Positions 1 to 24,946 of a stretch of 64,000 nucleotides of DNA are shown in pieces. A program made the position numbers and the translations under genes. This DNA is from Cyanidioschyzon merolae (lineage: Eukaryota): NCBI GenBank assembly GCA_000091205.1, contig AP006492.2; one strand, written 5' to 3'. The notes beneath the pieces are model-generated. The model saw nothing but the letters and a program-made list of their open reading frames with translations, was not told where the DNA came from and ran no database searches. Positions within the stretch are counted from its first letter, which is position 1. Each line of letters opens with the position of its first letter.

Positions 1-1432
1 AGTAACCAAAACGATACCGGAGTTGATCTCGAGCACTTCATGAAGCGCACCCCGTGGGCGTTGGGTCCCATCGCACAGGCCTAGGAAAACGGGGACGGAC
101 GAGAGACACGAAGACGAAGACGCCGCGCTGAGCGTGTGGATCCCCCGATGAAGCACACGGTAGCCGTCGCAGTACGTTTCAATCCACAGGTCAGATCCAA
201 CGACCTGAACGAAAAGCAGATGAAGCTGCATACGTTCTTCAGGGCTCCGTACGAGCGCGAGTCGGGCAGCTTGATCGCCAGCGCGCATGCGAACGACTGA
301 AACAGCGGCATCACGGCCAATCTCGACGCTCTGAATACCGCATCGAGCAGCTAATCACGCTTTGATCGCTTCACGCTGACACTTCGTGTACGTCCAAATG
401 GCTCATGTGGACGTCCTTCGGCAGGCCGACACGGAACCGCGTCCGAGTCGCCGAAGTTTTCGGCTTTATGGAGACCCGCAACGGACTTTCGCCAACCCGG
501 TCCATGAGTTGGAAAAAGCAAATCACCGAAAAGCCGTATGCACTGGTGGTAGCCTACGGCAATGCGCGTTCTGTGACGCCTGAAGACAGCGCTCGTTTCC
601 GCTCGACGAGCGCGTGCAACCAGTGCAGACATTGATGCCGCACGATTCCCATCAACGAATTCCGGGCTTCGACGTACGCACATCATGAGCACGGGTGCAC
701 GCTAGATCTGCCTGAGACACAGAGCATGGAACAGAGCCGAATACAATGGATGCTGTATTGTGAACTGAACAAGCGTCAAATGGCGCAGTACCTGGAAAAG
801 GAGACGCATCCTACGATGTGATTCCGCGAAGAGATGATGCGCGCAACCACGAGATGCACCGAAAGCTGAACGCCTCAATCAAGATCCGGAAGCATCTCGT
901 GGTTTCGGAGGATTCAGCGGTATTCTGTGGAGCGACACTTGTGAGCGCATCGTTTTGTATACAGTATATGCATTGTGTTGGCACGTCGAAGACTTGCAGG
1001 GAGAAAAATCAGCCGTCATCCGGGCTGGCATTGGACGCTTGCCTGGAGCAGCGCGCTTCTATAATGGGGTCCAGCAAGCAGGCAAGCATGAATCGCCATA
1101 TATACATTGGGAATGGTCTCCCTGCGTCATTGGTGAACGATAATCGTGTCACGCTATACGCTTTCGCGGAATATCTCGTGGTGCACACCCTGCTTCGCCA
1201 ACAGCTGGCTCCATCTCGCTGCTGACTCGTGCGACCTTCGCGCCACCCCAATGCGATCTCCAGCTGCACAAACACATACACATACACACACTGGAACACC
1301 CGTTCCACACAGGTGTGCTGTCCGCAGACGCCGGCTGTCCGACTGCTACCGATGTGCTCGTATTCACCACCGTTCGTGCGATCTGCAGCGGACGGGGCGC
1401 TATATCATCGGGCATCGTCGATGAAATGTAGT

Positions 1433-1454
1433 GGCGGGCGGAAAACCGCCCGCC
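1433..1454. other. perfect 9-bp stem / 4-nt loop hairpin (GGCGGGCGG-AAAA-CCGCCCGCC) abutting the stop codon and 3' boundary of Fanzor copy A1
   Basis: Read directly from the sequence. It sits at the edge where identity with copy A2 ends, and the equivalent position in copy A2 (about 22350-22370) is degraded. It is a candidate terminal structure of an omega-RNA or 3' UTR. Confidence 0.6.
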
Positions 1455-1919
1455 CTACACGAAATGTCTCCCACTGACGTGCAGACGCCTCCCAGTCTTT
1501 TTGGACCGGCCGCCTACTAAGGGTTTCAACTTTTTCTCATATAATTCCACCTTGAGAGGTTCTTCCGCGAAATTCTCTCTGGTCAACTCTGGAGGTCTTC
1601 TTTCTATCACCGCGCACCTCCTTATATTGATAGCGGCGTTAAAGTCTTGGTTCACAAACTTCATACGTTTCTTGCTATTGATTGTACTTCCGGATGCACC
1701 TAGTCCAGAAACTTTCGCTTTCCTTCCCATGTGCTCTTCTGTTAGCGCTCCGTACTTTTGTATATCTTCAGGGCTCCTCTGGCACTTTTTCATCCCCATC
1801 CTCTGAAGTGTACATCCCAACTCATCGTGTATAGGCGATTTCCGGAACTCATCGATCGGTATCGTAACGAAACGCCTGCGCACTCCTTGTATGTTCTTGT
1901 TGACGGCGCTGGTTGACAC
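1455..1919 (-). CDS. Fanzor/TnpB-like nuclease, C-terminal segment (RuvC-II, Zn-finger-like region, RuvC-III); frame-disconnected from upstream segment
   Basis: The ORF-track protein contains TIPIDEF (RuvC-II Glu), a Cys/His-containing spacer and VNQDFNAAINIRRCAV (RuvC-III Asp, a TnpB/Cas12 hallmark). The listed start codon is GTG. The frame is open upstream to about 1967 but differs from the 1985-3052 frame. Confidence 0.8.
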   Translation of the reverse strand: MSTSAVNKNIQGVRRRFVTIPIDEFRKSPIHDELGCTLQRMGMKKCQRSPEDIQKYGALTEEHMGRKAKVSGLGASGSTINSKKRMKFVNQDFNAAINIRRCAVIERRPPELTRENFAEEPLKVELYEKKLKPLVGGRSKKTGRRLHVSGRHFV

Positions 1920-1984
1920 GCTTTCTGGGTCATCCAGTGCCCTGATCCATACGCTACTAAAAGCCTCTTACTCTTATCTTCCTT

Positions 1985-3052
1985 TCAGGCGCTCAACTGA
2001 TTGAAGAAATCCGCGGTCGCCCGCTGCTTCCCACAGTATAGATTAACGCGCAGACGAGCCCACCGGGGCTTGGCGTACTCTTTCCACGGCGCTTCCCAGT
2101 CAGCAACACGGACTTTCGTGAATTTCAGAAAAGTTCGAAAGTCCGCTCCTCGGCTCGTCACCTCGCTCATAGCTTCCAGGTGCTCGTTCGCTCCTGCATT
2201 CCATGTCTCAACTTTCTTCCTTGCATTCTTTATGCCCGATTCTCGACAGTATCTTGCTCTCGAGAGCTTGAAAAGACGCATGTCTTTCTGACGCAAGTCA
2301 CCGTCACTGCCATCTTCTGCACGCTTCGGTGCTGCGACGGCTATATTCATCGTGTTTCCGGGGTCCACGCCGACGACAAAGTCACTCTCATGCACCTCCT
2401 GCGTCGCAGGATCCGCCTCTTTCTTTTCTTCGTGCTTCGTCAGGGGCGAAGCCGAAGGCACGATAGGACGATCCGCCTTCAACCGCCGACAGTGTGCACA
2501 CATGGACACTCCATCGGTTTCGATCGTGCCCGTGAATACCCTCTGCTTGCTCACTTTGCGACGTTTGAAATAGAAGATATTCTTCCAGTACGTCTCCCGG
2601 CTTTCACCGGTGAACTCCGTCTTCCTTCCATCGAACTGCGGACAGGTCTCCTCCATGACGCCGTAGAGGACTCTGGAGTCGATAATCACATAGTGCGACT
2701 TGATGCTGCACAGCGGAGCGACGTAGAAGCGCTTACCCAGAAGCGCGGCCTTCTGTCGCTCCGGCTCTTCATTTGCTTTCTGACTCGGCTCCATCTCCGC
2801 CTTGCGCTCGAGTTTTCGGTTCAGGAATCCGAAATAGCGCACAATGGGGCGATAACATCTTTCTTCATCTCTTTTCATATCTGGTACCTTTTCCGCTCGA
2901 TTCGCCAGCGCCAAGACTGCACGGTGCTCTTGAATAGCCGCACGGATTACAGAAGCTTCACTCAGGCACCGGCGTGACGTCTTCATGTCGACAAATTCGA
3001 TCTCCTGTACGTTCTGGCGATCGTTCGTGATGCCGTCGATGATGGCCCACAT
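1985..3052 (-). CDS. Fanzor/TnpB-like nuclease, central segment (WED/REC-like N-region and RuvC-I)
   Basis: 355-aa ORF with [19 protein letters not shown] (RuvC-I Asp) about 140 aa before its end, plus an upstream CxxC. It is 98% identical at the protein level to 22895-23962. Its frame is open upstream to about 3180 and overlaps the 2983-3252 ORF in the -1 frame. Confidence 0.75.
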
Positions 3053-3252
3053 CGCGCGGCGAGAGAGGCCGGGGGGTCCAGCGCAAACATGGCGCGTATC
3101 ATGAAGCGTTCGAGGTTCACGATCATATCGTTCTTCAGGTGCGTGAGGTGCTTGACTGCCCCGCTGGTGTAAACACGCAAGTCACCCCTGTATCGAGTAA
3201 CGTTGAAGCGGTATTCAGCATCATTTTTCATGCCGGGCATCCACTCGCTCAT
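2983..3252 (-). CDS. putative N-terminal segment of the Fanzor/TnpB-like protein (out of frame with the central segment)
   Basis: 89-aa ORF starting [21 protein letters not shown], reminiscent of the TnpB N-terminal k-a-y-k-f-R-l-Y-P region. It overlaps the next frame across 2986-3180, which contains a C6/G6 homopolymer at about 3071-3076. Adding one nucleotide there would fuse the frames (..[19 protein letters not shown]..). Confidence 0.4.
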   Translation of the reverse strand: MSEWMPGMKNDAEYRFNVTRYRGDLRVYTSGAVKHLTHLKNDMIVNLERFMIRAMFALDPPASLAARCGPSSTASRTIARTYRRSNLST

Positions 3253-3929
3253 TTCGCCGCGACGTTTCCCCTATAGCAAGCATGAGGTGACGAGTAAAGG
3301 TCTTGTAGAAGGCACGTTCCGAAACCTCAGCTGTTTCCAAGTGCGTCACGTCGCGATACATCTCCCTCGTCATATGCATCGGTCCTCAAGAAGCCTTGCA
3401 AACACTCCCGGAGTTCGACTCGGCACGGTTTCTGATGGCATCTCGCAACTTTTCCCCGTGCGGAGCAGTAGTATGCTTAAGAAGACAGGCTCTCACCACC
3501 ATCTCGTCGTATCGCCGTCTTTCTTGCAGCCTTTATTGTCGGACCTCCCGCTTTTGCTCCTTCGTCCTCTCCTGTTCTTCTGAACTCGGCACCGTTTTTT
3601 GTTTTTTCTCTGCCGGCTGTCGACGCTGTGCCCCCTGGATCCTCCATTTCCTTTTCCATGACTTTCCTTTTTTACATGTTTGGAAATGAGACTTCTTTGA
3701 ACGCTTCTGCTACAAACCGCGAAAAATCACTTGAAAACAGTTACTTGAGGGTTAGTACACAACTGAGGTGAAGGACTGTACTCTGCTACGACTACAACGC
3801 AAATACGACCTGTACGGTAGAGTAACAAGAAAACGATTAGGAAAGATCGCGTTTCCCTTCAACGGCGAGATGCGCGTCGTATCTGCTGGCTACCAGGCAT
3901 GGAGGTGGGCGTATCGAGCGCATTATTTA

Positions 3930-4570
3930 GAACAAAGAACAGAGACTAACAACTTACTAGCAACGATATAACGATTTCTATCCCCATCTACGATGAACAT
4001 TAAAAGGGGAAAACTTTCCGTATCTTCGGAAGTTTAACTTATGGGTGGAGGGTCCCGCAAGCCGGACTAGTCGTCAAGGCTAGTGCTTCGTGCTCTCCCT
4101 CGTGGAAGGCGCCATGATGAGAGCTGCACAGGTCGTCCAAAACGCAGTTTTTTCTGGGACTCGGAGAATGTATGCTGCGTCTGGGCACCGCCCCAGGTAG
4201 TAGTGGGCTTCTAGTATATCGCTTCGCGCTCTCGCAGGCAGAAGGCCTGCCTGCCCAGTTTCCAGGCTCCCGGAATGATAATCAGCCCTGAATCCGGGTC
4301 AAATGTACCATTCTTCGAGACGACGCCTTCACTGGTATGGCAAATCCGTTCTGTCGCTGTGCAGCATGCGCTCCAGCGGTTTAGGCGCTACGACGTGTGC
4401 TCAGTGTAGACACTCGGCGCACGATAGAGCATATGAAACGACCAGTATATCCGCGAGTAAGCTTGAGAAATGGAACTTGAAGATAGGTGCAGCATGATGG
4501 ACGCTTTCGCGAATGCCATCATCCATCCACTCCGAAATCTCGGATTTGTGGTCAATGTACACGCGTACCA
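3930..4570. repeat. paralogous segment X1 (~650 bp), adjacent to the 5' side of Fanzor copy A1
   Basis: About 70-75% similar to 27000-27650 (for example ..aaaggggaaaactttccgtatcttcggaagttt..gcaagccggactagtc.. versus ..aaaggggaaagatttctgtagtttcgaaagttt..gcgagccggacgagtc..). Minus-strand ORFs 4401-4697 and 27414-27668 share ..FKFH..LL.D.LVV.Y..SCA... Confidence 0.5.
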
Positions 4571-5289
4571 TCGATAAAAAATCAGCGGCATCCTCCGCTG
4601 GACACCGGCGGGAGCTGCCACGTGGCAGCACAAACGTGCGATTGCAAAGCATCCGTGTACCCGTGTCGCCGTCCGCGGCAGCGCCTCGGAGCAGCAATCA
4701 CCGCCACGAGCACACGGCGGTGGCTGCACGTGTGCGTGCGCTTCTATAACGCCCGATAGAGCATTCGAATTCGGCGTTCTACCGTAGTGCGCAGCACCGA
4801 GCGCTAGACACGTTACGGAGCTTTCTTCACTTTTGTTTCATCATGGTTTGGGACTATAAGCTGCTCGACTCTGTATCCGTCAGTCCACTTGACTGCATCT
4901 ACCAGTTTTTCTGCCTTCCCTGTGCGTGGGGTGAGTTGTACGCGGTCGACCAAGGAGAGCGCTGTCTTCAGCCGCAGTGCCTCATAGGCACCCTCATCGC
5001 CTTCGTGCCGGTTTTAAACTGCTTTTGCTTTGCAAACCGGCGCGCTGAGCAGATGGAACGTATGGGAATGTACGTTGACTATCTTGAGGTATGCGCTGTT
5101 ATTTGTGGTTTTCCCAGCGCTTGCTGCTTTGTGCACCAGGAGCGACTGCAGTACAATGGAACAGGTGCAGAGCCGAAGCTCATTCTCATGGAGTAATTTC
5201 GGTTGACGACATATGACAGGATTTCTGGTCTGTATCTCCACGATCTAGGTAACTGAAGTTTATATCTGCTCTGCAGGATCTACTTGAAC

Positions 5290-6957
5290 TCAGCGACCTG
5301 GCCTTGGTGGTGGAGTCGTACTTTGGAACCTGAGGGCGCGATAATTCTCTATCTCAGCCAGAGGTCGAAAAGGCTTAGCTAGGAAGCGATCATGATCGCG
5401 TTTCTTATGAGGGAACGTAAATAAGTTTTCTGCCATCAGCGCGGCAAGCGTTACCAGCAGTCCAGCTACAAAAATTGCCAGAAAAACCAAGATCCAGAAA
5501 CGATTGTGGCGCGCGGTACCAGCGATAAGCGGTACAACCTCCTTTCCCAGCGCGATGATGAGCTCCAGCATAATCAGAACAATGATAATGACCTCCAGCC
5601 GGCTGCTATGCCTGAACTGGAGCTCGCTACTCAACAGGTTCAACAGTTCCCGGACAACGTCAACACGTTTGTTCAACATCTCAACTCGTTGCGGTAGTTC
5701 TAAATAGCGCTCAACGAGACGATACAGAGAATCGTATTCGGGATGGTTCCAGATAATGTCAGGCGGATCCAGAACATCCGCAAAGAGGTACAGAATGTGC
5801 CTGTCCATCACCAGACTCCCCAGCGTCATGGCGATATCCCGGCGACTCCGCGAGACAATTGCACCTGTGGCCGCCAGCTCCGCAGCCAGATCACGCGTCG
5901 CCTCGACGCTTCGCTGAACACTCTCTTCAAAGCTGGACAGCTTGATAGATTGTGCCATGCCATGCGATGCAGCAAGCTTCGCTAGAACTGAAGCATCCGG
6001 CATCATCAGAATGTCTGAGACGAAACGCGGTTGATCCCCGCTTATTTCGTATGCAAAGTCATCAGACTCGGGTTCGTCAAGGCCGTCGCGTTCACAAAAT
6101 GATCGAATGATGGTCAGTAGATGGCGCTCCTCTTCGGGATCGAGATGCCACATGACCACAACACCGTAGCGAAAGATGAAGACATCGCCGGGCTCTTCAG
6201 CGGCGTCGTCTTCACTGACCATAGCTGCCCGCCGGGGTCGAGCGTGAATCACCAACGAGTCGTCGACCAAACCAGCCTGATTATTGGACCAGACTCTCAT
6301 TCGTCGAAGAGCTCGCACCATGTCATACTCCTTGGCGGTGCAGTACGTTGTAATGCGATATCGCCTGGCGTGATCGGTGCCCTCGATATCCCTCTGTAGT
6401 CTGGCGGTGCGTGCACGGGCGCGCACTTTTCGGCGGAGCGTTGCGGCTGCAACCTCTGGGGGCGCCGCTGCAGCTGCTGCTAACAGCTCGGCCTCCTCGG
6501 CGTTCGCCTCAAAATCGTCACCTTCTTCGGGGTCGATCGCGGTCGACGAAGACTCGGTCGGGGGATTCGACCCCGTGATCTGCAGCTCGCGGCCTTTGTT
6601 CCCCAGCAATTCGCTGTTTTCACAGGAACGTAAAATCGTCGTGTTGCCTTTTTCAAAGCTGAACGGCTTGCGTCGTACTTCGGGGAGCCAGCGGCTGCTC
6701 TGCGTTCCGCTGATACGGCCGCCTGCCAGCACGTGCCTAACGTGCTCTGTTCTCAGCCTTGCTTGCTTTCTTGGAAGCGCGGGCGGAGACAGCAGCACGT
6801 GCCTCAGTTGCAAGGATTCACTGCGCAATATCCGTAACTGGGCGCCCGCACGAAACCGGTACCCCGCAAGGTCCGCGGTGTGCTGCGTACTGCAGCACCA
6901 CGCACCGCCGGCAAAAGCCAACCGTCCACCAAAGCCGGTCTTTTGCAATTCTCGCAT
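5290..6957 (-). CDS. DUF155 / RMD1-family (RMND1-like) protein with C-terminal transmembrane segment
   Basis: 555-aa ORF with a conserved-looking core (..YRITTYCTAKEYDMVRAL.., ..FIFRYGVVVMWHL..), a coiled-coil region and a hydrophobic C-terminus (..VIIIVLIMLELIIALG.., ..ILVFLAIFVAGLLV..), matching the Rmd1/RMND1 architecture. The N-terminus is Arg-rich and looks like a presequence. Confidence 0.55.
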   Translation of the reverse strand: MRELQKTGFGGRLAFAGGAWCCSTQHTADLAGYRFRAGAQLRILRSESLQLRHVLLSPPALPRKQARLRTEHVRHVLAGGRISGTQSSRWLPEVRRKPFSFEKGNTTILRSCENSELLGNKGRELQITGSNPPTESSSTAIDPEEGDDFEANAEEAELLAAAAAAPPEVAAATLRRKVRARARTARLQRDIEGTDHARRYRITTYCTAKEYDMVRALRRMRVWSNNQAGLVDDSLVIHARPRRAAMVSEDDAAEEPGDVFIFRYGVVVMWHLDPEEERHLLTIIRSFCERDGLDEPESDDFAYEISGDQPRFVSDILMMPDASVLAKLAASHGMAQSIKLSSFEESVQRSVEATRDLAAELAATGAIVSRSRRDIAMTLGSLVMDRHILYLFADVLDPPDIIWNHPEYDSLYRLVERYLELPQRVEMLNKRVDVVRELLNLLSSELQFRHSSRLEVIIIVLIMLELIIALGKEVVPLIAGTARHNRFWILVFLAIFVAGLLVTLAALMAENLFTFPHKKRDHDRFLAKPFRPLAEIENYRALRFQSTTPPPRPGR

Positions 6958-8190
6958 ATTTCAAATAGGATTGCTTCTTTTACGGTCTGTTATAGTCCAG
7001 ACATGAGGAATCGCGACGGAGTGCCTCGACAGCTCGTGACGGGTACACGCTGCCTCCAACAAGGCGAATGCCTTCGTTCTGGTGCCCCGGCCACTGGGCG
7101 ATGGTGGCGTTTGCGTGAGGGCTATCGTCTGCGGCCGTGGCACCGAGTCCGCCGCTTTTGGTAAAGCGCCTGACTCTATGAGTGTCACTTTTGCTCGTCT
7201 CAGTGCGAAGCTGGGACCCCAAAGCAATCGGACTGCAATCGTTAACGACTTTGTTCTGCTTTAGACCGGGGAGCGTCGCTTTACTGTACGCACCGGCATC
7301 CGAGAGAGCCCAGCGGACGCTGGGCGGCTACGTGGTCCACCGAGCCAGGTGCACCCGAAACCAGCAGAACGTGTTTCGCAACCTGACAAACACGCCGCAC
7401 TGCGCCCCCAGCTTTGTTCTGGGAGCAGTTTGCACGCCGTGGTTACGAAGCCCTCTAACGCTGGTGTCGAGCTAGGTGTGGCGTCGGTCACATCGCTTGC
7501 ACTGCCTCACCGTTCCAGTAGAGCGTGCTCCTTCGAGAAGTCTGCCAGCGGAGCGTACCCTCGAACACGCTTTGGAGTGATACGGCTGTGTTTGCCGCTG
7601 CCGCTGCGCTCATGACTCCGAATTATCTGTGCGCACGGCATGGAAAAGATGCAGATGACTGAGTGTCAGTAGGACGCGTAAATGTGTGTTGTGGCTTTTG
7701 GAACTGGGAGGAGTAGTGCGCACTGCTGAACGCTTCCCCGGATGGGGGCAGCAGTCGCGCAAGCATGTCTCCCTGATTAGTGCAAAGGATGCAGCAGTTC
7801 TTGGGAAAGTTGCGTACATCGCAAACACAAATGTAAGCGCAAGTTGCGTCGCCGTTGATGAGTGCAACCGCATCGGGCGCTGACCCGTCTCCTACTGACG
7901 TCGGCGAGGTTCCCGTTGGAGTTATAGATGGCCAGTGCGCAGTTCCCATGCTGGATTTGGCCTGCGAAATCCATGGGAATAACGACAAGCGCTTTACAAC
8001 CGGTGTCAGCGTAGAATCGAATGCTGAACTGCTGGCTCTGTCCGCGCCTCGCGATTATTTTCCGAAATATTTGAAGGTGTACAGCCTCTGCATTGGACAT
8101 GCAGCAATCAGGGCCCATGGATGCTGACGTGGATTAGGATTCGCGGTCATCGTTTCACAGCGGCTCCTTCAACACTTTGCTGCTGGAATT

Positions 8191-8362
8191 CGATACGCGG
8201 TACCGGAATCAAGATGATTACCGATATGGTCCAACAAGGGCGTCCCTGGAATCAACGATCCCGTTACTTAATGGATACGCGGTACCGGAATCAAGATGAT
8301 TATCGATATGGTCCAACAAGGGCGTCCCTGAAAGCATCGATCCCGTTACTTAATGGATACGC
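8191..8362. repeat. 82-bp tandem duplication (about 2.1 units)
   Basis: gatacgcggtaccggaatcaagatgatta[c/t]cgatatggtccaacaagggcgtccctg..cgatcccgttacttaatg is repeated head-to-tail with 3-4 mismatches. Confidence 0.85.
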
Positions 8363-10181
8363 ACAAGCCTGTACGCTTCTCCTCAACGTATGAGTACCAT
8401 GCTCGAATAAAGTATGCTTCAGGTTTTCGATTTCTCTCTCTGTGCGTGTGTGTGTGTGTCAAGGCAACTCGTGAGCGCACCTATTCCGTCCATTGGATTG
8501 CCGACGGGAAAGCGCCGCGACGTCGTCCCTGCACGACTTGCTTACGAGCGCCCGCCCGAAACTCACTACATGCTTCACGTCAATAACCGATTCCATTCGC
8601 AAGACAAATCATGCTTTCGTTCAAACCAACGATGAAACGTCATCCGATGCCAGCACCATCCCTCTTGCGGGATACGCTCCGCGACGCTCCCGACTCTTCT
8701 GCGTGCCCGGCAACGAGTTTCGCGCTCAAAGGGGCGTCATCGCCGCGGCCCCTTCCAGTGGAGCATGCGTCGCAACTTTACACGAAGGAGGCGTACACGG
8801 ACCGGAATTTACCAAGTGGTTCCCCCAGCCTGCATATCCCTCCCGGTACTTGTCTGTTCATGGAGAGCACCGGGCCCCAAAAAGCATCCACCGAGCTGGA
8901 CAGCGTGCGCTTGCGTACACAGCGGACAGCGAACTCGACGAGGTGATCGCCCAGAGCAAGCGCGTCCTCTTCGAACACGGCACCGGGCATGGAATCGGAG
9001 GCGGACCCTTAGGGAAGCCTACCTATAGCGCTCCATCGCATGTGCGGGGCGATGTGTCAGGCCTTGAGGCGCGGTACTCCAGCGCTCTTAGGCGCAAATG
9101 CAGTGTGTCGATGCGAAAACGTGGCCACAGCCAGTTGTCACCGATGCGAATGACGCTCTGTGGCGGTGTACAAACATAGATGAGCGCTGGAAGCGAAGCG
9201 TGGACTGCATCCACCGCCTGCGCATGACATGCGTGGACAACAGCCAGATGCATCGAACTCGAGACTTGAACGCTTATAGGAACGTCCGCCGATCTCCGGC
9301 AACCGAGGTCGACGGACCGGAGAGGCCGGTGTATCTAAAGCCGGCGCCTAGAGAGAAAGACGGCGAAAAAGCAGTCCCAACGCCAGTCGCGAACAGCTGG
9401 CGTTGATGACCCTGGGATGACACTCCTCCGTAGCTTTAGAGTACGCGCTCGTATTCGTGGACTTGTTTCATACTGCTCGGGCATGGATAAAGAGCGCCTA
9501 GCGATCTCATCGACTTCATCGATCCTGAATCAAAACGAAATGCACACGTTCGGCTGCTTCGATCAGCGAGAACGCGTCGTCGCATCACATGGTCGGGACA
9601 TCGCTGCGGCAAAGACCTGCACACGAAAGCGGAACGCCCCAAAGACATCTTCAGAAGCGAATGTCTGTTTTTACGCAGTATGCAACGATCACATGGCGTA
9701 GTGCCAAGCTCCTGGACTTCGTTTCGTACGTGATGAGCGCGTACACCCCAGGAAATCCCGTTTTAACCGCTTGTTTATCTGAACCTATGACCCAGAGTTA
9801 GAGCGAGCAACATGACTGTGCGTGAAAGACTGCAAAAATTTCCCAGATAAAGTACCAGGTTCATGATTGGATTCATTGCCCGCGGGATGATGACACACCC
9901 AGATTTGCCCGAGATCCAATCTCATAGAAAGCGCACTCGCGAGGAACAGGCTCCAGCTACCACCGCCGCAGCACCGCAACATCCAGCACATGACCAGCGC
10001 AAGCGTGTCGCTCGCACAGAGCGTTCGAGCTCGGTTTCACATCCCGAGCTGGCCTACTCGCAAATATGACGCAAGCCGTTCGTCGTGATGTCGTCGGGTG
10101 CTCGAGTCCCTGGGCATCGTGAGTGCTCCAGCATCGTCCAGTATGAATGGCTCGGTCAGCGTGGTCATCGGCGACGAAGCG

Positions 10182-11048
10182 CTAGCGCTCCGCTCGACAT
10201 CCGAGAGATGCACGAGTCGGGGCACCGGTCAGCGGATTCTCTCCGTCGAGCGTCGGGTTTCGGCATAGCCGTCTCAAGCCGTACTCGCCAATATAGACAT
10301 CTGTAAAGTCAACATCACGCACATTCGTACCATCGCTGAACATTGAATCTGAAAGAACCGCATTCCTAAAAACGCTTCCACTGAGATCAGCATTCTCAAA
10401 GTTGACACGGTCAACGACTGCGTCCTCGAAATCGCATCTGCGGCATTTGAAGCCCGGTGCGTATGCCTTGCTCAGCTGCGTGGACCGGAAACGCGCCTCA
10501 TCCGCGGTTGCGCCTTCGAGCAGAACCCCACTCAGATCATATCCACTAAAGTCTCTACCGCGTAAATCGCAAAACCTCCCGTCTAGGAACTTATCGCGTG
10601 CAGCATTCGCTTGGCCAATCGTCGACGACGTCAAGTTGCACCGGTTCGGGTCCGTCATATCGACCGGTGGTAGCTTGAAAGCTGGCGAAGGCGCGGCAAA
10701 CAGTCCCATTGGATCCACGAAACAAAACAGCAGCGGGACCATATACAAACCGACTGCTAAGCTTTGTGTCAGATTCGATAGGCGTTGCCCGGGCGTGCCC
10801 CAGCTGGCTCGAGGTGCAACCGGTGACCCAAGCCGCAGACGACCTTCTCGGCACTGGTGTCGAACGCGTAGACGTTTCGCGTCGGACCCCGCAAAGGCAC
10901 GCTCCCAAAGAAACCGCCCCGTGTTGGATATTGCTGATCGCGTACCTAGTTGCACGCCTGTGCCGATAAAAGCCACCGTCACATAGCGCTGACGCGGAGC
11001 AGGCGCCACGACACCCAAGTCATCCAGTGCTGGTGCAAACTTTGTCAT
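10182..11048 (-). CDS. pentapeptide-repeat protein (thylakoid-lumen TL15/TL20-like)
   Basis: Consecutive pentapeptide repeats (..DFSGYDLSGVLLEGATADEARFRSTQLSKA..NFENADLSGSVFRNAVLSDSMFSDG..). The N-terminal extension is consistent with organelle targeting. Confidence 0.7.
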   Translation of the reverse strand: MTKFAPALDDLGVVAPAPRQRYVTVAFIGTGVQLGTRSAISNTGRFLWERAFAGSDAKRLRVRHQCREGRLRLGSPVAPRASWGTPGQRLSNLTQSLAVGLYMVPLLFCFVDPMGLFAAPSPAFKLPPVDMTDPNRCNLTSSTIGQANAARDKFLDGRFCDLRGRDFSGYDLSGVLLEGATADEARFRSTQLSKAYAPGFKCRRCDFEDAVVDRVNFENADLSGSVFRNAVLSDSMFSDGTNVRDVDFTDVYIGEYGLRRLCRNPTLDGENPLTGAPTRASLGCRAER

Positions 11049-11476
11049 CGTTTCCCAAAAGACTCTCTAGCGTACTTGAAACCTGACCTTGCAGGTTTCT
11101 TCCTAGTGTGTCGAGCCGAGTCTTGACCCGCGAACACGCTCGACAAGAGCACGCCCTTCCGAACGACAAGCGATCGCGCAGGCACGTACCATAAATCCCT
11201 TGCTGAACGGTACGCATCGCACGCCCGGCACGTCACCACGGGCGTATCTGGTGATGTGGTACGCGCTGGGTGTCGAGCATCGCGTCACACTTGAAACGCT
11301 TTCAATCTGTACATAGAAGCCATTTTATATACAGAGCGGACGACGCTGTGCACGCCGAGTCACCGGTGGCCGCCCTCTGACGCGCACGCTGTGCACGAGA
11401 CGCCAGTCGGCTGCGTGCGCGCGTCGCTCACCAGCAGAACGGGTGGTATCGCGCGGCACGCAGAGGCGCGTGTTTC

Positions 11477-12934: not shown

Positions 12935-13754
12935 ACTCACAACGCGGATGATGCTTTCATCTGTTCTGGTTCACGAAGTCGTCCTCCCGTTGGCGACCGC
13001 ATGCATCCTCGAGTCATGGAATGATCGATTGGTACAGGATGTGCGGCAAGTCCAGTGGCGAGCGCATGACCCGTGCATCTGTGGTGTTGCGGGCACCCAG
13101 GAAACCGTGCAGTGCATGCGAACGTGTACCCATTGCAAGCACGTTCACGCGTCTTCATCACGATTCATGACATGTTATCAGCTGCAGTGAGATATCCTTT
13201 CTATCTCTCTCTCTCTCGCACTCTCACGCACGCTAGCATGTTTGCGGTAGCTTGCGGTGCCTGCATCGACGCATCGAATCAGAGCGGTGTGGTGTGTCTC
13301 TGCCCAAATTCCCCGTTTCCACCGCAGCGCTCAGAAAGAACACTTCGTATCGAGTCGAGCCTTGCGGCCGTTGCGCGCAACTGCGGAACCTCGTCGTTCA
13401 TCGGACCGCCTAGATCGGTTTCCGCAGCACGGCACCAGCTGAGCACCGGCTGAAACCTGCTCACACCTTCATTATCTTTCCGTGTGAATAGGAACGCATG
13501 GAATCCGTCTCTGCCCGCTGCTCTGGATGAATACGGCGACGCGACAGTTCGACGCATTTAACCAGGTATCACGGAGTGCGCGATGATTCTTGACACCTAC
13601 CAGAGCTTCCATCATTCCGTACCTGGCCTTCATGCTCCACCAATAACCATCACCCATAGTTCGTCTCGGGGATTCGGGTCCGCTCATACGATTCATGCAC
13701 GCGATAGTTGTCGGCATTGAGCGACACTGGGACGGGCGATGATGCTCAAGCAAT

Positions 13755-14948
13755 TTGGACGGAGGCTGGGCGCAGCGCTTGCAGGATCGAAACCTGTACC
13801 GCATTCTTCCAGGTGTTGCACGCTGTTCCAAAGTCGGGGCTGACGACTTGCTTCCGAACACTCATGCCCACAGTTTTCGAAGTGCGATGACCGGGAAGCC
13901 TCCGCGAAAGCGGAATCCACAATCTGAAGTGCGAGCGTTGTCTATAGCAGCAACGGCAACAGCAGCAGCAGGAGCTGCGGATGCGGGAAAGAACGCAGCG
14001 TCAAGCGTCAGTGCCGCTGACTTGCCGCCTTCCTGCAGACTCTACGAGGCAATCACAGGGATTGGAGGCGGAGCGCTAACTCCGGTCGGAACACGTGGTG
14101 AAGGCGCCGGTGGTGCACCGTCGTCGTCGTCGTCGTTGTCGCCGCTGTTCCTTCAGCCGTACCTCTTCGCACGACCGAGTCCGTGTCTCGAGCACGAGTT
14201 CGAGCGCATCGGGGCCGAGGCTCCACGCTGGTTGGCGGCACCACCTGTGGTGGACGATGAGCTGGAATGGGATATCCTCGGCGATCTCTTTCGGCCGCTG
14301 TATATCGACACGGAAGAGACACAACAATGGGAAACTGTTTTGAATCAAGCTGGCACGACGCGGTGCCTACCGGGTGCGCCCCAGGCTACCTGCGCTTCAA
14401 CGATCTGTCAACATTATCTGAAAGCGCTTTCTCAGGAGATGTCTCGGGCAACGACGGAATACGCGACACTGGATGGCGGCGATGATGCGCAGACGCGTCT
14501 ATCGCCGACGGACACATTGCATCTACGTCGCAATGCTTTTGCGACGCTGGTATACGCATCCCCGATCGTCTTCGAGCCAATGGATTATGTTGTGCTCCTG
14601 GAATGGGTTATGCAGGGGGTTTCGGAGACCGGCGCGACCCCGAATGCGTCCATCCCTGAATCGGTCGAGTTGGGACTTGTCACTCTTGAAATCGCCGTGC
14701 CCTGCATCCTTTATCGTTGGCTTCGGAGGCAGCCGTGCGTCTCGACCGCCGCGAGGGTCAGCTGTCGAGAGCGACTCCTACCGGATGGACTGGTAGAGCT
14801 CGCTCGCGTTGCATGCCGCTGTGCCCAGATCCGCGAACGTTTCCTGTTTCCAGACTGGGTCGCGTGGCTTCGTGAGCATCTGAGGCTCGCGCCCAGGGCC
14901 GGACTCGCTGGGCGCTGGCTCGAATTCGAGTTGATGCGCATGTACTGA
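13755..14948 (+). CDS. hypothetical protein (397 aa)
   Basis: Long ORF in a GC-rich region containing a (CGT)n tract that encodes SSSSS. I recognise no domain. Confidence 0.35.
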   Translation: MDGGWAQRLQDRNLYRILPGVARCSKVGADDLLPNTHAHSFRSAMTGKPPRKRNPQSEVRALSIAATATAAAGAADAGKNAASSVSAADLPPSCRLYEAITGIGGGALTPVGTRGEGAGGAPSSSSSLSPLFLQPYLFARPSPCLEHEFERIGAEAPRWLAAPPVVDDELEWDILGDLFRPLYIDTEETQQWETVLNQAGTTRCLPGAPQATCASTICQHYLKALSQEMSRATTEYATLDGGDDAQTRLSPTDTLHLRRNAFATLVYASPIVFEPMDYVVLLEWVMQGVSETGATPNASIPESVELGLVTLEIAVPCILYRWLRRQPCVSTAARVSCRERLLPDGLVELARVACRCAQIRERFLFPDWVAWLREHLRLAPRAGLAGRWLEFELMRMY

Positions 14949-15196
14949 ACATGAGTGGAATGTTGAGCAAGCATAAACGCTTTAAAGCCGTTGAAGACAC
15001 CGTTCATAGTGCGATGATATTCTGGTTACACTCGTCCGCGGTTCCATACAGTTCTCCGTGTAGGGGTCATTCGCTCGATGCTCAGCAGTTGGTGATGCGG
15101 TAGAGCCTCTTTGGTAAAAAGCAAGCGCCAGATGCGCCCGCGCTCAACCGCAAACCAACAGCACTTTCACTTCCCGTGTTCTGACATGGGAAGCGC

Positions 15197-16639: not shown

Positions 16640-16694
16640 ACGCTGGGCTCAAGGCCTGGCTGTTTGTGATCAAGTTCCTGCGGCCCAAGACACC

Positions 16695-16716
16695 GCACAC
16701 ACACACACACACACCT
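16695..16716. repeat. (CA)n microsatellite
   Basis: cacacacacacacacacacac; other short microsatellites lie at about 1272-1291 (CA/CATA), 8446-8459 (GT), 29802-29820 (CAG) and 13200-13213 (CT). Confidence 0.85.
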
Positions 16717-17089
16717 CAACAGAGCAGCACGCGTGTAGCAGCAACGACGCGTTCGTGCAGTCCGTAAATCCGATGCTTTCACGATCCGCTGGAATGCGGC
16801 GTGGTGCAGCGCGCTCGCGGGATCGCACCCCGAGATCCTTTCAGCTCGACGCCGGTGCGTCGGGCTATCTTCCATAATTGGACAAAACCTTCCTAAAAGA
16901 TCAGGGATCCCCAACGGTGCGCGGTGAAGCACCGATCATACCACGCCCTATCTCCAAGGTCCATGGTCCATAATTCTTCTCGGATACATTGGTCACTTTG
17001 TACGTTCTATCGTGTGCCGCGTATCTGCATTCCTGCATCGGTGATCGCGCCTATAGCGCCGTTACGGTCATAGCAGAGAGACAGGACGA

Positions 17090-18440
17090 CGTTGGCGTAC
17101 CCCAGAGGACGTCGGCTCGAGATGGTAAACTGATACCCAGGCGCAGATGCCTCTCAGCCTTTTTTGACCGTCAGACTGCCATCAATTTCAGTTTATTCAG
17201 GCACGCTTCGAGACTGTGAGGCTGCACGAAGCAAGAGGATCGCGCTAGCCCCGAGGGTCTCGTCTCCAGCACCGCACATCATTTGATATTGATAGCGGCG
17301 TTGAAGACTCGGTTCACGAACTCCATGCATGTATTGCCTCTGGTGGTGCTCGCCAATGGAAGGAGTCCTCAAACTAGTGCCCTCAGTGCCATTTGCTGCT
17401 CTGTCAGCTCTCCGTGCTTTTCTATCGTCGAAATGCTCCGCTGCATTCTCCCCATCCCGATCTTTGAATGGTACATCCCAGCTCATCCCTCAGACTTTTT
17501 TGAAAATGAACGCAATTCTTCATGCCATTAGGTGAGGATCTTCCCTAATGGAGAAGGATTCGTTCAAGGAAGATGTAATGTGCCACAGTGTGTCACTGTG
17601 TGCTGGGCGATTCAGCGATTCGGCCAGTGGAGCGGTCGATAATTTCCATGATAGAAAACACTTCTTCAGTGGGGTACAACAACGGAACGTACTACGGAAT
17701 GAAAAGCAGCTCTACCCAGATAGAATCGGCAAATGCTCGATCCCTGGGGAATATTGAAATACCATGTTGTTCAATAGAAGGACGTCTCAATACGTTAGGG
17801 AAACCCTTCAATAATTCGATAAAGTGGTTGGTGCTGTTGTATGCGCCTTTATTACGAGCGATAGCGAGGCCATCAAATGAATGCCCTGCAGCTAGAATAG
17901 ATGATGATGTCCTCGTCTTCTTCGATTTCGATCGTACATACATTGGGCCTCCTTTCCGAGAATACCAATATATGCTCCCACCGTTTCATCCGAAGCAAGC
18001 CTCATCGACTGAGGAAACAAACCAAAGTGCCTGTGCTTCATACCGATCGCGACGTCCCAGGAAAGCTGTGGTAGCGATTTCCGTAGACGATGGCCGTGCG
18101 TGAAACTGGATTTTTTGCCTGTTTCCAAGCTTTTACAGGACCAGATGAACAAGATGTCGAGCAACTGAGACGCCTGTGGCAAATGATACCGACAATTTCT
18201 CTTTCCATACGGTGATCAACGGGTCGCATTCTTCCATTGTCCATAAGCAGTCTTCGAGAATATCGGTTGTTTGCCGCAGAGTGCATATGCTTCTTTGTTT
18301 CAGTGTTCCTCAACCATCGGAGTACTTTGGTATAACTGACTTGAAGGAGAAACACAGTACTCGTTGCACTGTTCAATAAAGAATATATCCCACCGGCAAT
18401 TCGTCTACGATCTATACGGTACATTGCATCGTGATGTCGA
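17090..18440 (-). mobile_element. degenerate chimeric element B1: Fanzor 3' module (about 17090-17490) fused to an unrelated ~0.95-kb segment Y
   Basis: The minus strand at about 17283-17325 encodes MEFVNRVFNAAINI, a RuvC-III motif with the Asp replaced by Val. The plus-strand mirror ORF 17283-17531 parallels the mirror ORF of copy A1. About 17090-18440 is roughly 75% identical to 49855-51210. Confidence 0.55.
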
Positions 18441-19307
18441 TCTCCTGCTACACACCCCAGCAGGTCTCCAGCAAATTGGGTTGGAAGACTAGACGAAGTG
18501 TACGCGGTGCTTTCATTGAGATTTTGCATGTTGCATCTGCGAGACAGGTATTCACTGGAGAGCGCAGTGCAACGAAACCTTGGGTTTCGCCGAAACTCCA
18601 GCGAAGACCGGGTACCATGTTTCGAGAGGACGCCTGGGAGTCCTGTGGTCGCGTGAGCAGGAACAGCTCGCCGGTCTGCTGTTGCTTTCGCAAACGTTTG
18701 GAAAACGGAATCGCGGGTGATCGGAAAGCCATGATTTTGGGCGAAGCAGGTTTTACGAGTTCAGTGCGTCCAGTAATCCAGCCACGGCGGTTGTGAGGAC
18801 CTGCCGCAACCCGCTCTGTTGTGGCAGCTATGACATAGACTTGGTGCCCACACTGTTCAGCAGCGTCTGGTGCATGATCCTGGCCAAAGCTCGCACGTGT
18901 CAGCGTTTCCGCCGAGGGCCATAGACGCTCGTGTCGCCAGCGTTTTCAGAGACAGTGTTCCGAGCGTTCGCGTGGCCTTACCTCGCAACCGAAAGGAAGC
19001 GTTTGTCTCCTAGAGTTCGGAATGCTGTTGTCTAAGGTGCGGCGTTTCAGAGTCAGAACACGGACGCGACGCCGCGGATGTTTCGCTGTCCACTCGGCCG
19101 GCTAGGGCGTTCGACGACGGCTCGGTTGCACGCTTGTTCTGAAGCTCTCTGTTTTTCAGCTGCGAGCTTCTTGGAGTTAGGTATCGCCTGCGAGAAGTGG
19201 TGCTTGCCTGAGGGTTCTTGGATCAGATAGATCGGGGGACGCATGCCGGTGCACTCGATGCAGACGGTGGTATTGAGGCGTTGAGCGCGAGAACGCCCAT
19301 TTTCCCT

Positions 19308-20408: not shown

Positions 20409-20793
20409 GTTCGTTCAGTCGCTTGAAAAGCCGAAACCTCACGTTGATCTTGCCAAACAATCAGATGCGCTTCCGCTGGGACTGACAGAGATTTGACGCA
20501 ACTGCACCGCAATGACGCTACGAGAGCACCAGCGACAGCAGCAACAGTGTTCCACAACGATACGATTATATAGCGTAATCCGCTATGTTTGCGTGATGAT
20601 TGCGTCCTGGTAGCGGGCGCTTCTAGCGATAGCGTTGCGCGAATCCAGTTTGAAAATTAAGATCCAAGATGCCGCGCCAGCTCGATAACTTCATTCCCGT
20701 GCGCGATCGATGATGCGATGGTAACGGCTGGTTAAACCGGTCGTCAGTGCACCTTGGTACTAACTCTGGGGACGAGTCTTGTCCAGAACTGCG

Positions 20794-22137: not shown

Positions 22138-22223
22138 CAGGAGCAGGCTGACGAACCATGTGAAACGAACGCGCAAAGCGTTCAGCTTTGGAAGAATGCG
22201 GAGTGATGCATCCGTGTCTGCTG

Positions 22224-22829
22224 TCACCGCCTCGTCTGGAGATGGAGGATGCACTTTAGTATCGAGAATGATGCCGTGCACGCGACCTCGGGTGACACTC
22301 GCGAACGCCGTTCAAAAGTCGAAAGCAGTCGCCAGCGGTTTACAGTAGTGGCGGCGAACGCGCCCAAGACAAAACTTCTCCAACTGACGTGCAGACGCCT
22401 CCCAGCCTTTTTGGACCGGCCGCCTACTAAGGGTTTCAACTTTTTCTCATATAATTCCACCTTGAGAGGTTCTTCCGCGAAATTCTCTCTGGTCAACTCT
22501 GGAGGTCTTCTTTCTATCACCGCGCACCTCCTTACATTGATAGCGGCGTTAAAGTCTTGGTTCACAAACTTCATACGTTTCTTGCTATTGATTGTACTTC
22601 CGGATGCACCTAGTCCAGAAACTTTCGCTTTCCTTCCCATGTGCTCTTCTGTTAGCGCTCCGTACTTTTGTATATCTTCAGGGCTCCTCGGGCACTTTTC
22701 CATCTCCACCCTCTGAAGTGTACATCCCAACTCATCGTGTATAGGCGATTTCCGGAACTCATCGATCGGTATCGTAACGAAACGCCTGCGCACTCCTTGT
22801 ATGTTCTTGTTGACGGCGCTGGTTGACAC
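22224..22829 (-). CDS. Fanzor/TnpB-like nuclease C-terminal segment (RuvC-II, RuvC-III), copy A2
   Basis: Carries the same TIPIDEF and VNQDFNAAINVRR motifs. Its C-terminus reads through into flanking DNA because the stop codon present in copy A1 is absent here. Confidence 0.75.
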   Translation of the reverse strand: MSTSAVNKNIQGVRRRFVTIPIDEFRKSPIHDELGCTLQRVEMEKCPRSPEDIQKYGALTEEHMGRKAKVSGLGASGSTINSKKRMKFVNQDFNAAINVRRCAVIERRPPELTRENFAEEPLKVELYEKKLKPLVGGRSKKAGRRLHVSWRSFVLGAFAATTVNRWRLLSTFERRSRVSPEVACTASFSILKCILHLQTRR

Positions 22830-22894
22830 GCTTTCTGGGTCATCCAGTGCCCTGATCCATACGCTACTAAAAGCCTCTTACTCTTATCTTCCTT

Positions 22895-23962
22895 TCAGGC
22901 GCTCAACTGATTGAAGAAATCCGCGGTCGCCCGCTGCTTCCCACAGTATAGATTAACGCGCAGACGAGCCCACCGGGGCTTGGCGTACTCTTTCCACGGC
23001 GCTTCCCAGTCAGCAACACGGACTTTCGTGAATTTCAGAAAAGTTCGAAAGTCCGCTCCTCGGCTCGTCACCTCGCTCATAGCTTCCAGGTGCTCGTTCG
23101 CTCCTGCATTCCATGTCTCAACTTTCTTCCTTGCATTCATTATGCCCGATTCTCGACAGTATCTTGCTCTCGAGAGCTTGAAAAGACGCATGTCTTTCTG
23201 ACGCAAGTCACCGTCACTGCCATCTTCTGCACGCTTCGGTGCTGCGACGGCTATATTCATCGTGTTTCCGGGGTCCACGCCAACGACAAAGTCACTCTCA
23301 TGCACGTTCTGTGTGGCAGGATCCGCCTCCTTCTCATCTTCATGCTTCGTCACGGGCGAAGCCGAAGGCACGATAGGACGATCCGCCTTCAACCGCCGAC
23401 AGTGTGCACACATGGACACTCCATCGGTTTCGATCGTGCCCGTGAATACCCTCTGCTTGCTCACTTTGCGACGTTTGAAATAGAAGATATTCTTCCAGTA
23501 CGTCTCCCGGCTTTCACCGGTGAACTCCGTCTTCCTTCCATCGAACTGCGGACAGGTCTCCTCCATGACGCCGTAGAGGACTCTGGAGTCGATAATCACA
23601 TAGTGCGACTTGATGCTGCACAGCGGAGCGACGTAGAAGCGCTTACCCAGAAGCGCGGCCTTCTGTCGCTCCGGCTCTTCATTTGCTTTCTGACTCGGCT
23701 CCATCTCCGCCTTGCGCTCGAGTTTTCGGTTCAGGAATCCGAAATAGCGCACAATGGGGCGATAACATCTTTCTTCATCTCTTTTCATATCTGGTACCTT
23801 TTCCGCTCGATTCGCCAGCGCCAAGACTGCACGGTGCTCTTGAATAGCCGCGCGGATTACAGAAGCTTCATTCAGGCACCGGCGTGACGTCTTCTTGTCG
23901 ACAAATTCGATCTCCTGTACGTTCTGGCGATCGTTCGTGATGCCGTCGATGATGGCCCACAT
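22895..23962 (-). CDS. Fanzor/TnpB-like nuclease central segment (RuvC-I), copy A2
   Basis: 355 aa, [17 protein letters not shown], near-identical to 1985-3052. Confidence 0.75.
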
Positions 23963-24162
23963 CGCGCGGCGAGAGAGGCCGGGGGGTCCAGCGCAAACAT
24001 GGCGCGTATCATGAAGCGTTCGAGGTTCACGATCATATCGTTCTTCAGGTGCGTGAGGTGCTTGACTGCCCCGCTGGTGTAAACACGCAAGTCACCCCTG
24101 TATCGAGTAACGTTGAAGCGGTATGCAGCATCATTTTTCATGCCGGGCATCCACTCGCTCAT
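23872..24162 (-). CDS. putative N-terminal segment of Fanzor/TnpB-like protein, copy A2 (frameshifted relative to central segment)
   Basis: Near-identical to the 2983-3252 ORF and overlaps the next frame in the same way. Confidence 0.4.
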
Positions 24163-24946
24163 TTCGCCGCGACGTTTCCCCTATAGCAAGCATGAGGTGA
24201 CGAGTAAAGGTCTTGTAGAAGGCACGTTCCGAAACCTCAGCTGTTTCCAAGTGCGTCACGTCGCGATACATCTCCCTCGTCATATGCATCGGTCCTCAAG
24301 AAGCCTTGCAAACACTCCCGGAGTTCGACTCGGCACGGTTTCTGATGGCATCTCGCAACTTTTCCCCGTGCGGAGCAGTAGTATGCTTAAGAAGACAGGC
24401 TCTCACCACCATCTCGTCGTATCGCCGTCTTTCTTGCAGCCTTTATTGTCGGACCTCCCGCTTTTGCTCCTTCGTCCTCTCCTGTTCTTCTGAACTCGGC
24501 ACCGTTTTTTGTTTTTTCTCTGCCGGCTGTCGACGCTGTGCCCCCAGGATCCTCCATTTCCTTTTCCATGACTTTCCTTTTTTACATATTTGGAAATGAG
24601 ACTTCTTTGACCGCTTCTGCTACAAACCGCGAAAAATCACTTGAAAACAGTTACTTGAGGGTTAGTACACAACTGAGGTGAAGGACTGTACTCTGCTACG
24701 ACTGCAACGCAAATACGACCTGTACGGTAGAGCAACAAGAAAACGATTAGGAAAGATCGCGTTTCCCTTCAACGGCGAGATGCGCGTCCCGTCTCATGCC
24801 CGCCAGGTATCCCGGGTGCGCCTAGAGTGCGCGCCGCGTGCGCCACCGCAAGCGTTACAAATCGAAACACGCGCCGCAGCGCCAACGAACGCGCCATGCT
24901 TCATGCTTAGCGTTTTCGGGGGCTCACGTACTAGACGCCGCACAGT

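Follow-up and report, generated by a model that had tools for sequence, protein, structure and literature searches.

Probable gene conversion between two disrupted Fanzor1 elements of the CMe-1A family in Cyanidioschyzon merolae

Introduction

Which process makes two copies of a nuclease-type element, inserted 20.9 kb apart on one chromosome and in the same orientation, almost identical in sequence? This question is raised by a 64-kb stretch of a nuclear chromosome of Cyanidioschyzon merolae (contig AP006492.2), referred to below as the window, in which two segments of the minus strand, here named copy 1 and copy 2, carry the RuvC motifs of a protein of the TnpB/Fanzor type. C. merolae is a unicellular red alga. 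Since the first description of the Fanzor family, Fanzor1 enzymes have proved to be RNA-guided nucleases; for three of them the structure has been solved. The flank comparisons and our own copy counts refer to the window and to the metagenome loci that were retrieved for comparison.

A sequence-only reading of the window had interpreted the two segments as two copies of a mobile unit that encodes the ordered RuvC motifs of a TnpB/Fanzor nuclease. Its assignment of the segments to the Fanzor/TnpB protein family stood, and what it had implied about the intactness of the copies, the boundaries of the element and its novelty did not. We consider it likely, with a probability of about 0.75, that both copies are dead Fanzor1 relics of the published CMe-1A family and that their near-identity was caused by ectopic gene conversion between old insertions.

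Results

Identity of the two elements

The paper that defined the Fanzors (Bao & Jurka 2013, Mobile DNA 4:12, PMC3627910) describes one Fanzor1 family in C. merolae, CMe-1A. According to these authors the family numbers about 150 members, which are about 80% identical to the consensus and in some cases still intact; the consensus of 3169 bp encodes CMe-1, a single-exon protein of 734 amino acids (aa) that they assigned to Fanzor1; terminal inverted repeats (TIRs) are absent and target-site duplications (TSDs) were not determinable; and the 5' 635 bp are 95% identical to the entire TE-N2_CMe repeat, of which about 70 copies exist (PMC3627910). We took the consensus from the supplement of that paper and aligned it to the window by blastn. 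Copy 1 is a full-length CMe-1A element (1437-4563, minus strand; consensus 12-3125, 82.9% identity), and its homology to the full-length metagenome paralogues L011 and L012 is continuous from 4529 to 1449. It includes a TE-N2_CMe-like 5' module (3935-4563, minus; consensus ~12-636) that was recognised by self-BLAST, blastn and alignment of the termini. Copy 2 (22306-24824, minus; consensus 657-3169, 83.6%) represents a short form without the TE-N2 module and with a complete 3' end. A tblastn search matched the window protein to the published 734-aa CMe-1 sequence. By these alignments both segments are members of the already published CMe-1A family in its type genome; the family is not new, its detection in the window is a rediscovery, and the choice between Fanzor1 and Fanzor2 that had been left undetermined is settled as Fanzor1, specifically CMe-1A/CMe-1.

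Scans of the window fragments of the open reading frame (ORF) and of intact homologues against Pfam and NCBIfam yielded no TnpB/Fanzor model, only a weak match to DUF460 and a sub-threshold match to Cas12f1-like_TNB (E 0.23); the precomputed label of the homologues is DUF8286 only, and the ORFs of the element have no exact counterpart in the protein collection that was searched. The conceptual window protein is about 60% identical to intact metagenome homologues of 582-752 aa (E 1e-216 to 1e-226), one of which, the 752-aa paralogue P0003, is encoded like the published consensus by one uninterrupted ORF. A single-sequence search of the PDB with the window protein found nothing significant (best match SpuFz1, E 0.41), and a family profile was required. 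The profile of an alignment of 25 homologues of the window protein (alignment A1; residue numbers are those of P0003) gave only three significant matches in the PDB: PpFz1 of Parasitella parasitica (6.9e-20), SpuFz1 of Spizellomyces punctatus (1.9e-15) and GtFz1 of Guillardia theta (8.6e-07). An AlphaFold2 model of P0003 (pLDDT 76.5, pTM 0.73) was compared with solved structures by Foldseek, and all seven significant matches were Fanzor1 structures, with SpuFz at the top (E 1.6e-16, TM 0.71); Mimivirus Fanzor2 and Cas12 proteins followed with E-values of 2e-3 or worse. The model thus fits SpuFz, GtFz and PpFz much more closely than it fits Fanzor2, Cas12 or TnpB. Because the family profile and the P0003 model both match solved Fanzor1 structures, the segments, as judged by profile and predicted fold, encode a RuvC nuclease of the Fanzor1 type and not a Fanzor2, TnpB or Cas12 protein. 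The profile check that the sequence-only reading had itself named thus bore out its TnpB/Fanzor assignment.

Four residues are invariant in all 25 homologues, namely D484 (in DPG), G623 (AYGAG), E656 (DEFRTS) and D725 (NRDxNAAxNI). G623 and E656 are 33 residues apart and align with the MGDW and DEYKTS motifs of SpuFz1. In the rearranged RuvC-II of Fanzors an inert residue, proline or glycine, stands where TnpB has its canonical glutamate, and the active site is completed by an alternative glutamate further downstream (PMC10530073). By alignment, the CMe-1 homologues carry this rearranged RuvC-II of the Fanzor type. Translation and comparison with A1 located the corresponding region of copy 1 at 1845-1957 (minus): VAYGSGHW (1934-1957; 22844-22867 in copy 2) has glycine at the position of the canonical TnpB glutamate, and IPIDEF (1845-1862; 22755-22772 in copy 2) provides the alternative one, so that the motif TIPIDEF quoted previously as RuvC-II corresponds to the alternative glutamate. 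The RuvC-I motif (2351-2383 in copy 1, 23261-23293 in copy 2, minus) and the RuvC-III motif FVNQDFNAAIN (1626-1658 and 22536-22568, minus) have each retained their aspartate, and all three motifs quoted earlier are indeed found on the minus strand of both copies. A four-cysteine zinc ribbon between RuvC-II and RuvC-III is part of the Fanzor sequence motif of 2013 (PMC3627910). The four cysteines (A1 columns ~806-880) are retained in one of the 25 homologues (P0098); CMe-1-like proteins have HH..C..C in this place and most other members of A1 a single cysteine.

The near-identical tract

Comparison of the window with itself by BLAST aligned 1451-3878 in copy 1 with 22361-24788 in copy 2 over 2428 nucleotides (nt), with 98.68% identity, 32 mismatches, no gaps and E = 0. 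The near-identical pair of about 2.45 kb is real, and the limits given for it previously (1425-3888 and 22345-24788) lie within about 25 nt of the BLAST ends. The 32 mismatches are scattered along the length of the tract, with a cluster of seven at its 3' edge (1456-1496); in 50-nt sliding windows the two copies are mostly 96-100% identical, with dips to 88-92% at four places. The core of the tract (1473-3878 versus 22383-24788) contains 26 differences in 2406 nt (98.92% identity), and over this core both copy 1 and copy 2 are about 83% identical to the consensus.

At its borders the relationship of the copies is a different one. Over the 45 nt that adjoin the tract on its 5' side they agree with each other at 60% and each with the consensus at about 72%; for the 60 nt that adjoin it on the 3' side the value between the copies is 67%, and against the consensus it is 68% for copy 1 and 88% for copy 2. 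In the 5' direction copy 1 continues unbroken into about 650 nt of TE-N2 module, as the full-length paralogues L011 and L012 do, whereas copy 2 extends for only about 35 nt more and then ends, in the same way as the short-form paralogues L002, L009 and L010. On the 3' side copy 2 matches the consensus to its final base and copy 1 departs from it after a GC hairpin. Identity therefore does not collapse at both ends into unrelated host DNA, since both elements extend past the tract on each side, and the 2.43-kb block is not the mobile unit; it lies within two CMe-1A copies that are longer than the block and differ in structure. From self-BLAST, sliding identity and flank comparison we define 1451-3878 and 22361-24788 as the two sides of a proposed gene-conversion tract, to which no strand is assigned.

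These borders bear directly on the assumption of a recent transposition, in which a 2.43-kb element would have been copied to a site 20.9 kb away and the ends of identity would be its termini. An identity of 98.7%, host genes that differ at the two flanks and a repetitive family that was presumably once mobile are what such an event would leave behind. However, the ends of identity are not termini: both copies match the consensus and the paralogues beyond them, and each other at only 60-67%. Furthermore, the TE-N2 module is present in copy 1 only, and seven disabling lesions (see below) are common to both copies, so that any mobilisation would have to be brought about in trans. For these reasons we regard a recent transposition as unlikely.

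Ectopic gene conversion is, as judged from the boundaries of the tract, the most likely origin of the near-identity. This reading is preferred because all of the divergence from the consensus and all seven lesions are common to the copies within the internal 2.4 kb, while the termini are those of ordinary diverged paralogues. Copies 1 and 2 would be separate old insertions of different structure, each diverged by about 17% from the consensus, and a non-allelic conversion would have repaired one of them with the other as template; the two lie 20.9 kb apart on one chromosome and share their orientation. The disabling mutations would have been carried across by the same event. Since the tract is internal to older copies that differ in structure, its near-identity is no sign of recent mobility.

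A larger segmental or tandem duplication, the flank homology of which has since been lost, would also place the copies in the same orientation and could account for the TE-N2 sequence upstream of each (3935-4563 and 27013-27629). These two TE-N2 copies, however, are only about 71% alike; one directly adjoins the tract, and the other is 2.2 kb away from it, with an ORF that has a weak, sub-threshold FYRC match in between. In the self-BLAST the flanks outside the elements are unrelated, as the sequence-only reading had maintained. A junction as expected of a tandem duplication or a circle does occur in the metagenome contig L008, but this contig is most simply explained as a chimera, and another one (L007) has the order of the window around copy 1. 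A duplication of this kind appears very unlikely.

Disrupted reading frames

The minus-strand reading of the elements spans three frames and several stops, and its longest ORF has 355 aa. A codon-level comparison with the consensus ORF revealed the identical four frameshifts and three in-frame stops in both copies: one extra nucleotide each near codons 17 and 146, two extra nucleotides near codon 194, a deletion of 1 nt near codon 594, and stops that replace Q42, S91 and L557. The disrupted Fanzor1 frame of copy 1 (1455-3659, minus; located by three-frame translation, codon comparison and tblastn with CMe-1) has its frameshifts near 3611, 3225, 3079 and 1879, its stops from 3535 (Q to TAA), 3388 (S to TGA) and 1987 (L to TGA), and a 3-nt deletion near 1681. 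In copy 2 (22368-24569, minus; translation, codon comparison and tblastn) the frameshifts lie near 24521, 24135, 23989 and 22789 and the stops start from 24445, 24298 and 22897, and the frame has also lost its terminal stop codon. Conserved residues are altered as well: the invariant Arg-Gly of RGLL has become Ser-Gly (SGLG, 1683-1712 in copy 1), the near-invariant arginine before the RuvC-III aspartate is a glutamine (RD to QD), and FRTS reads FRKS. Because the same four frameshifts and three premature stops are present in both copies, neither can act as a nuclease. Both are pseudogenes and dead as nucleases; the intact frame that had been implied is contradicted by a longest open stretch of 355 aa and seven common lesions, and with these identical disabling lesions the copies also cease to be candidates for active enzymes.

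It could be argued that functional genes are read here via introns or programmed frameshifts. Fanzor genes of other algae have introns (PMC3627910, PMC10530073), and the metagenome variant L001 (positions 1-2146; protein P0001) is free of one of the frameshifts, as it has a run of four C where both window copies have six (3079 and 23989, respectively); it thus lacks the 2-nt insertion and has an ORF of 421 aa. L001 nevertheless has every other lesion that its sequence covers, its 3' end stopping short of the last frameshift. The consensus and intact paralogues such as P0003 (752 aa) are single uninterrupted ORFs, and the lesions are indels of 1-2 nt and point-mutation stops in conserved, alignable codons rather than gaps of the size of introns. 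The substitutions of conserved residues named above and the decayed local 3' RNA structure (copy 2, z +0.22) are equally difficult to reconcile with function, and we consider functional genes at these positions extremely unlikely.

Corresponding loci in metagenomes

A scan of metagenomes found two loci, both of which are the loci of the window. L007, from a related hot-spring metagenome strain, has the same arrangement as the window at the copy 1 locus. L001, L004, L007 and L008 combine alleles of copy 1 with alleles of copy 2 at the diagnostic sites, a mosaic that fits continuing exchange and mixing by the assembler alike. L008 (Ga0080006_1103189, 1-13795) leads from the upstream flank of copy 1 (window 9252 to 3879) through one element into the downstream flank of copy 2 (22360 to 16370). 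It was considered as the junction of a tandem duplication or circle and judged more likely to be an assembly chimera formed via the 2.4-kb repeat; L007 supports the order of the window, and the alleles are mosaic.

The identity of the tract could itself be an artefact of assembly in which the reads of one copy built both. Repeats of this length are error-prone in assembly, and the mixed diagnostic alleles of the metagenome contigs would point in this direction. On the other hand, the copies differ at 32 positions along the tract, and the element was recovered from independent metagenome assemblies both at the locus of copy 1 and in a junction with the downstream flank of copy 2, in sequences that are 99.2-99.5% identical to the window. 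We give hardly any credence to an artefact.

Element structure and termini

The short form is found in four of seven compared elements (copy 2 at 24824, L002 at ~7690, L009 at ~3340 and L010 at ~1100). It starts at consensus ~645-657, just past the TE-N2 part, and the solo TE-N2 of the window stops at ~636. Because several members begin just after the TE-N2 part, the published 3.17-kb consensus looks like a composite of TE-N2 and a Fanzor unit of about 2.5 kb. The solo TE-N2_CMe copy (27013-27629, minus; consensus 16-636, 79%; self-BLAST and blastn) has the same orientation as copy 2, and the consensus coordinates of the two (to 636 and from 657) nearly abut at a distance of 2.2 kb. The interval (24825-27012) contains a plus-strand ORF of 429 aa with a sub-threshold FYRC match (E 0.031), possibly a host gene. 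The near-abutment may be a coincidence or may mark an old full-length element that was split; the specific case of a single full-length element into which 2.2 kb were inserted was judged unlikely, as the interval may hold a host gene.

At the aligned ends of CMe-1A no TSD is visible and, apart from one borderline inverted match, no TIR; a search for terminal inverted repeats found none when the Fanzor unit or TE-N2 was taken by itself. The inverted match is perfect over 10 nt and pairs GACAAAACGT at the 5' terminus (consensus 5-14) with ACGTTTTGTC (~3098-3107; ~22368-22377 in copy 2), which spans the last codons of the ORF and directly precedes the GC hairpin GGGCGCG-TTTG-CCGCC. The match scores 20, against 18 at the 95th percentile and 21 at most among shuffled sequences, and single copies have preserved it poorly. 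Fragments are biased towards the 3' end: copy 2 and three relics retain the 3' part, and 3'-terminal pieces dominate the relics of the window. With 3' bias, 3' hairpin and inverted match, the layout of CMe-1A may be Helitron2-like, a borderline lead suggested by sequence. Helitron2 elements have asymmetric terminal inverted repeats, of which the 3' one precedes a 3' hairpin, as well as a 5' hairpin and a partner with RepHel; the 10-nt match lies where such repeats would be expected. No RepHel gene was found in the window or in the retrieved paralogue loci, and among the ORFs of the window there is no TnpA-like one, in line with the earlier statement that no TnpA-type gene is adjacent. In related genomes a reverse-transcriptase gene (RVT_1) adjoins a Fanzor paralogue (L009:742-2638 and L010:3-399); it was dropped as a partner, since the window contains nothing that corresponds to it and it does not resemble the ends of CMe-1A.

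The 3' 131 nt of the consensus fold better than shuffled sequences (z = -3.27), and the stop codon of the consensus ORF is 59 nt from the element end, within this multi-stem region. The 3' terminal region of copy 2 (22306-22430, minus) is a candidate remnant of an omegaRNA scaffold, the structure of which has decayed according to folding against shuffles (z +0.22). Scans of the whole window with Rfam at gathering thresholds and for tRNAs gave zero matches.

Other relics and repeats in the window

Besides copies 1 and 2 the window holds five Fanzor-derived relics and two TE-N2 pieces (the solo copy and one fragment), and altogether about 9.8 kb (15% of the window) are of CMe-1A family origin. 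An old, degraded Fanzor1 relic that corresponds to about aa 453-690 of CMe-1 lies at 139-943 (plus; tblastn, 34-39% aa identity; nhmmer match 383-703). The TE-N2 fragment (16947-17126, plus; consensus 84-262, 71.4%, blastn) is followed by a 3'-terminal Fanzor relic (17135-17486, minus; ~aa 619-728; tblastn, nhmmer and blastn, the latter from 17486 to 17256), and another 3'-terminal relic is located at 49930-50248 (minus; ~aa 624-721; tblastn, nhmmer and blastn from 50248 to 50013). An internally deleted relic (34319-34887, plus; blastn 34361-34510 and 34675-34874, nhmmer, tblastn) combines consensus ~827-969, near the start of the ORF, with ~2889-3088.

A more divergent Fanzor1-like relic was found by tblastn at 44018-45370 (plus), with 25-29% identity to the N-terminal half of CMe-1 and P0072 and a C-terminal trace. 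It scores slightly better against P0072, a more distant homologue, than against CMe-1, and may derive from a second, older Fanzor1 lineage of C. merolae, for which the survey of 2013 gives one family.

Directly upstream (in element orientation) of the two 3'-terminal relics at 17135-17486 and 49930-50248 lies a repeat of 880 nt with 74% identity (17566-18447 and 50322-51204), and the extreme 3' tails of these relics are also unlike CMe-1A. Because the 880-nt repeat adjoins both C-terminal relics upstream, they belong to a sub-family in which the Fanzor 3' part is retained and the 5' part is a different, apparently non-coding one. A second repeat pair (30734-31996 and 55192-56457) is 98.66% identical over 1266 nt. 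Its ORFs comprise 171 and 172 aa on the plus strand and 207 and 223 aa on the minus strand; Pfam gave nothing significant for this pair, only a weak match to HTH_Tnp_4 (E 0.099), and it is probably another repeat family of the C. merolae genome.

Seven host ORFs of the window are exact matches to C. merolae 10D proteins (BAM80277 to BAM80295), which confirms the eukaryotic nuclear setting assumed for the locus. The flank of copy 1 described as rich in microsatellites contains only one short array, (CACATA)x3.7 at 1267-1288.

Discussion

The discovery value of the two copies is small, as the consensus, the copy number, the absence of TIRs and the relationship to TE-N2 of CMe-1A were all published in 2013. 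What the locus teaches is that near-identity of such dispersed repeats is not evidence for recent mobility. Copies 1 and 2 are unsuitable for the mining of nucleases; intact relatives such as P0003 are the relevant ones.

How an intact CMe-1 protein would work can be proposed from its homology to SpuFz1 and GtFz1, two characterised Fanzor1 enzymes (PMC10432273). The protein, about 734 aa long and folded like a Fanzor1, would bind an omegaRNA produced from the 3' end of its element. The 3' extension of this RNA would guide CMe-1 to matching double-stranded DNA beside a short 5' motif, the target-adjacent motif (TAM), and the predicted cut would be made by a D/E/D site that consists of the aspartate of DPG, the alternative glutamate of DEFRTS and the aspartate of RDxNAAxNI.

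Such an activity would offer a possible cause for the conversion itself: the tract could be the footprint of homing or gene conversion that was triggered by intact Fanzor copies cutting at or beside members of the family. Repair from paralogues after Fanzor cuts would then allow CMe-1A to persist without a transposase, and would account for the absence of TIRs, TSDs and transposase as well as the "long-lasting coding capacity" noted by Bao & Jurka (PMC3627910). What is observed is a conversion-like tract only, and we regard homing as quite unlikely.

Four points weigh against our interpretation of dead CMe-1A relics homogenised by ectopic conversion and against the mechanism proposed for their intact relatives. 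The analysis covers 64 kb, and more copies of about 99% identity with the same boundaries elsewhere in the genome would favour a mobile "core". The case for conversion is built on boundaries, and related metagenome strains already carry the near-identical tract, so that no pre-conversion state is seen. In the literature searched there is no report of a nuclease activity of C. merolae CMe-1. Finally, for the putative omegaRNA an alignment fold of seven copies has 43 pairs of which two show a compensatory change, a weak covariation that overlaps coding sequence.

Prokaryotic TnpB proteins (of IS200/IS605 and IS607; ISDra2 TnpB, 8h1j) are much smaller than CMe-1, which has an N-terminal half of the Fanzor1 type, glycine in place of the canonical RuvC-II glutamate, no TnpA neighbour and a eukaryotic nuclear host; no match to OrfB_IS605 or OrfB_Zn_ribbon of Pfam was obtained with the window fragments or the intact homologues. 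As to Fanzor2 and IS607-like elements, the closest fold and sequence are not theirs, and the element contains no TnpA_IS607. The solved Fanzor1 proteins (SpuFz1, 8gkh and 9ceu-9cez; GtFz1, 9cer; PpFz1, 9cf0) share only 12-16% sequence identity with CMe-1, the CMe-1 clade does not conserve the four zinc-ribbon cysteines that SpuFz1 has, and the window copies, moreover, are dead.

CRe-1, CRe-2 and CRe-3 are Fanzor1 proteins encoded on non-autonomous Helitron2 elements of Chlamydomonas reinhardtii (PMC3627910). CMe-1A resembles them as a high-copy family of algal Fanzor1 elements without a transposase of its own, and it has the 3' bias of fragments and the GC hairpin at the 3' end. It differs in that neither RepHel nor a TTTT target or TSDs were seen and in that its inverted match scores hardly higher than shuffled sequence does; CMe-1A was not assigned to a class by those who had defined Helitron2 (PMC3627910). 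From the published CMe-1A family itself the window copies show no categorical difference. They align along the consensus with 82.9% and 83.6% identity, which fits the reported value of about 80%, and occur in the same host genome; copy 1 has the reported TE-N2_CMe 5' module, and TIRs and TSDs were found here as little as in the original description. To this description the present study adds two pseudogene members that have been homogenised over 2.4 kb, most likely by conversion, a short form of the element and the frequency of its 3' fragments.

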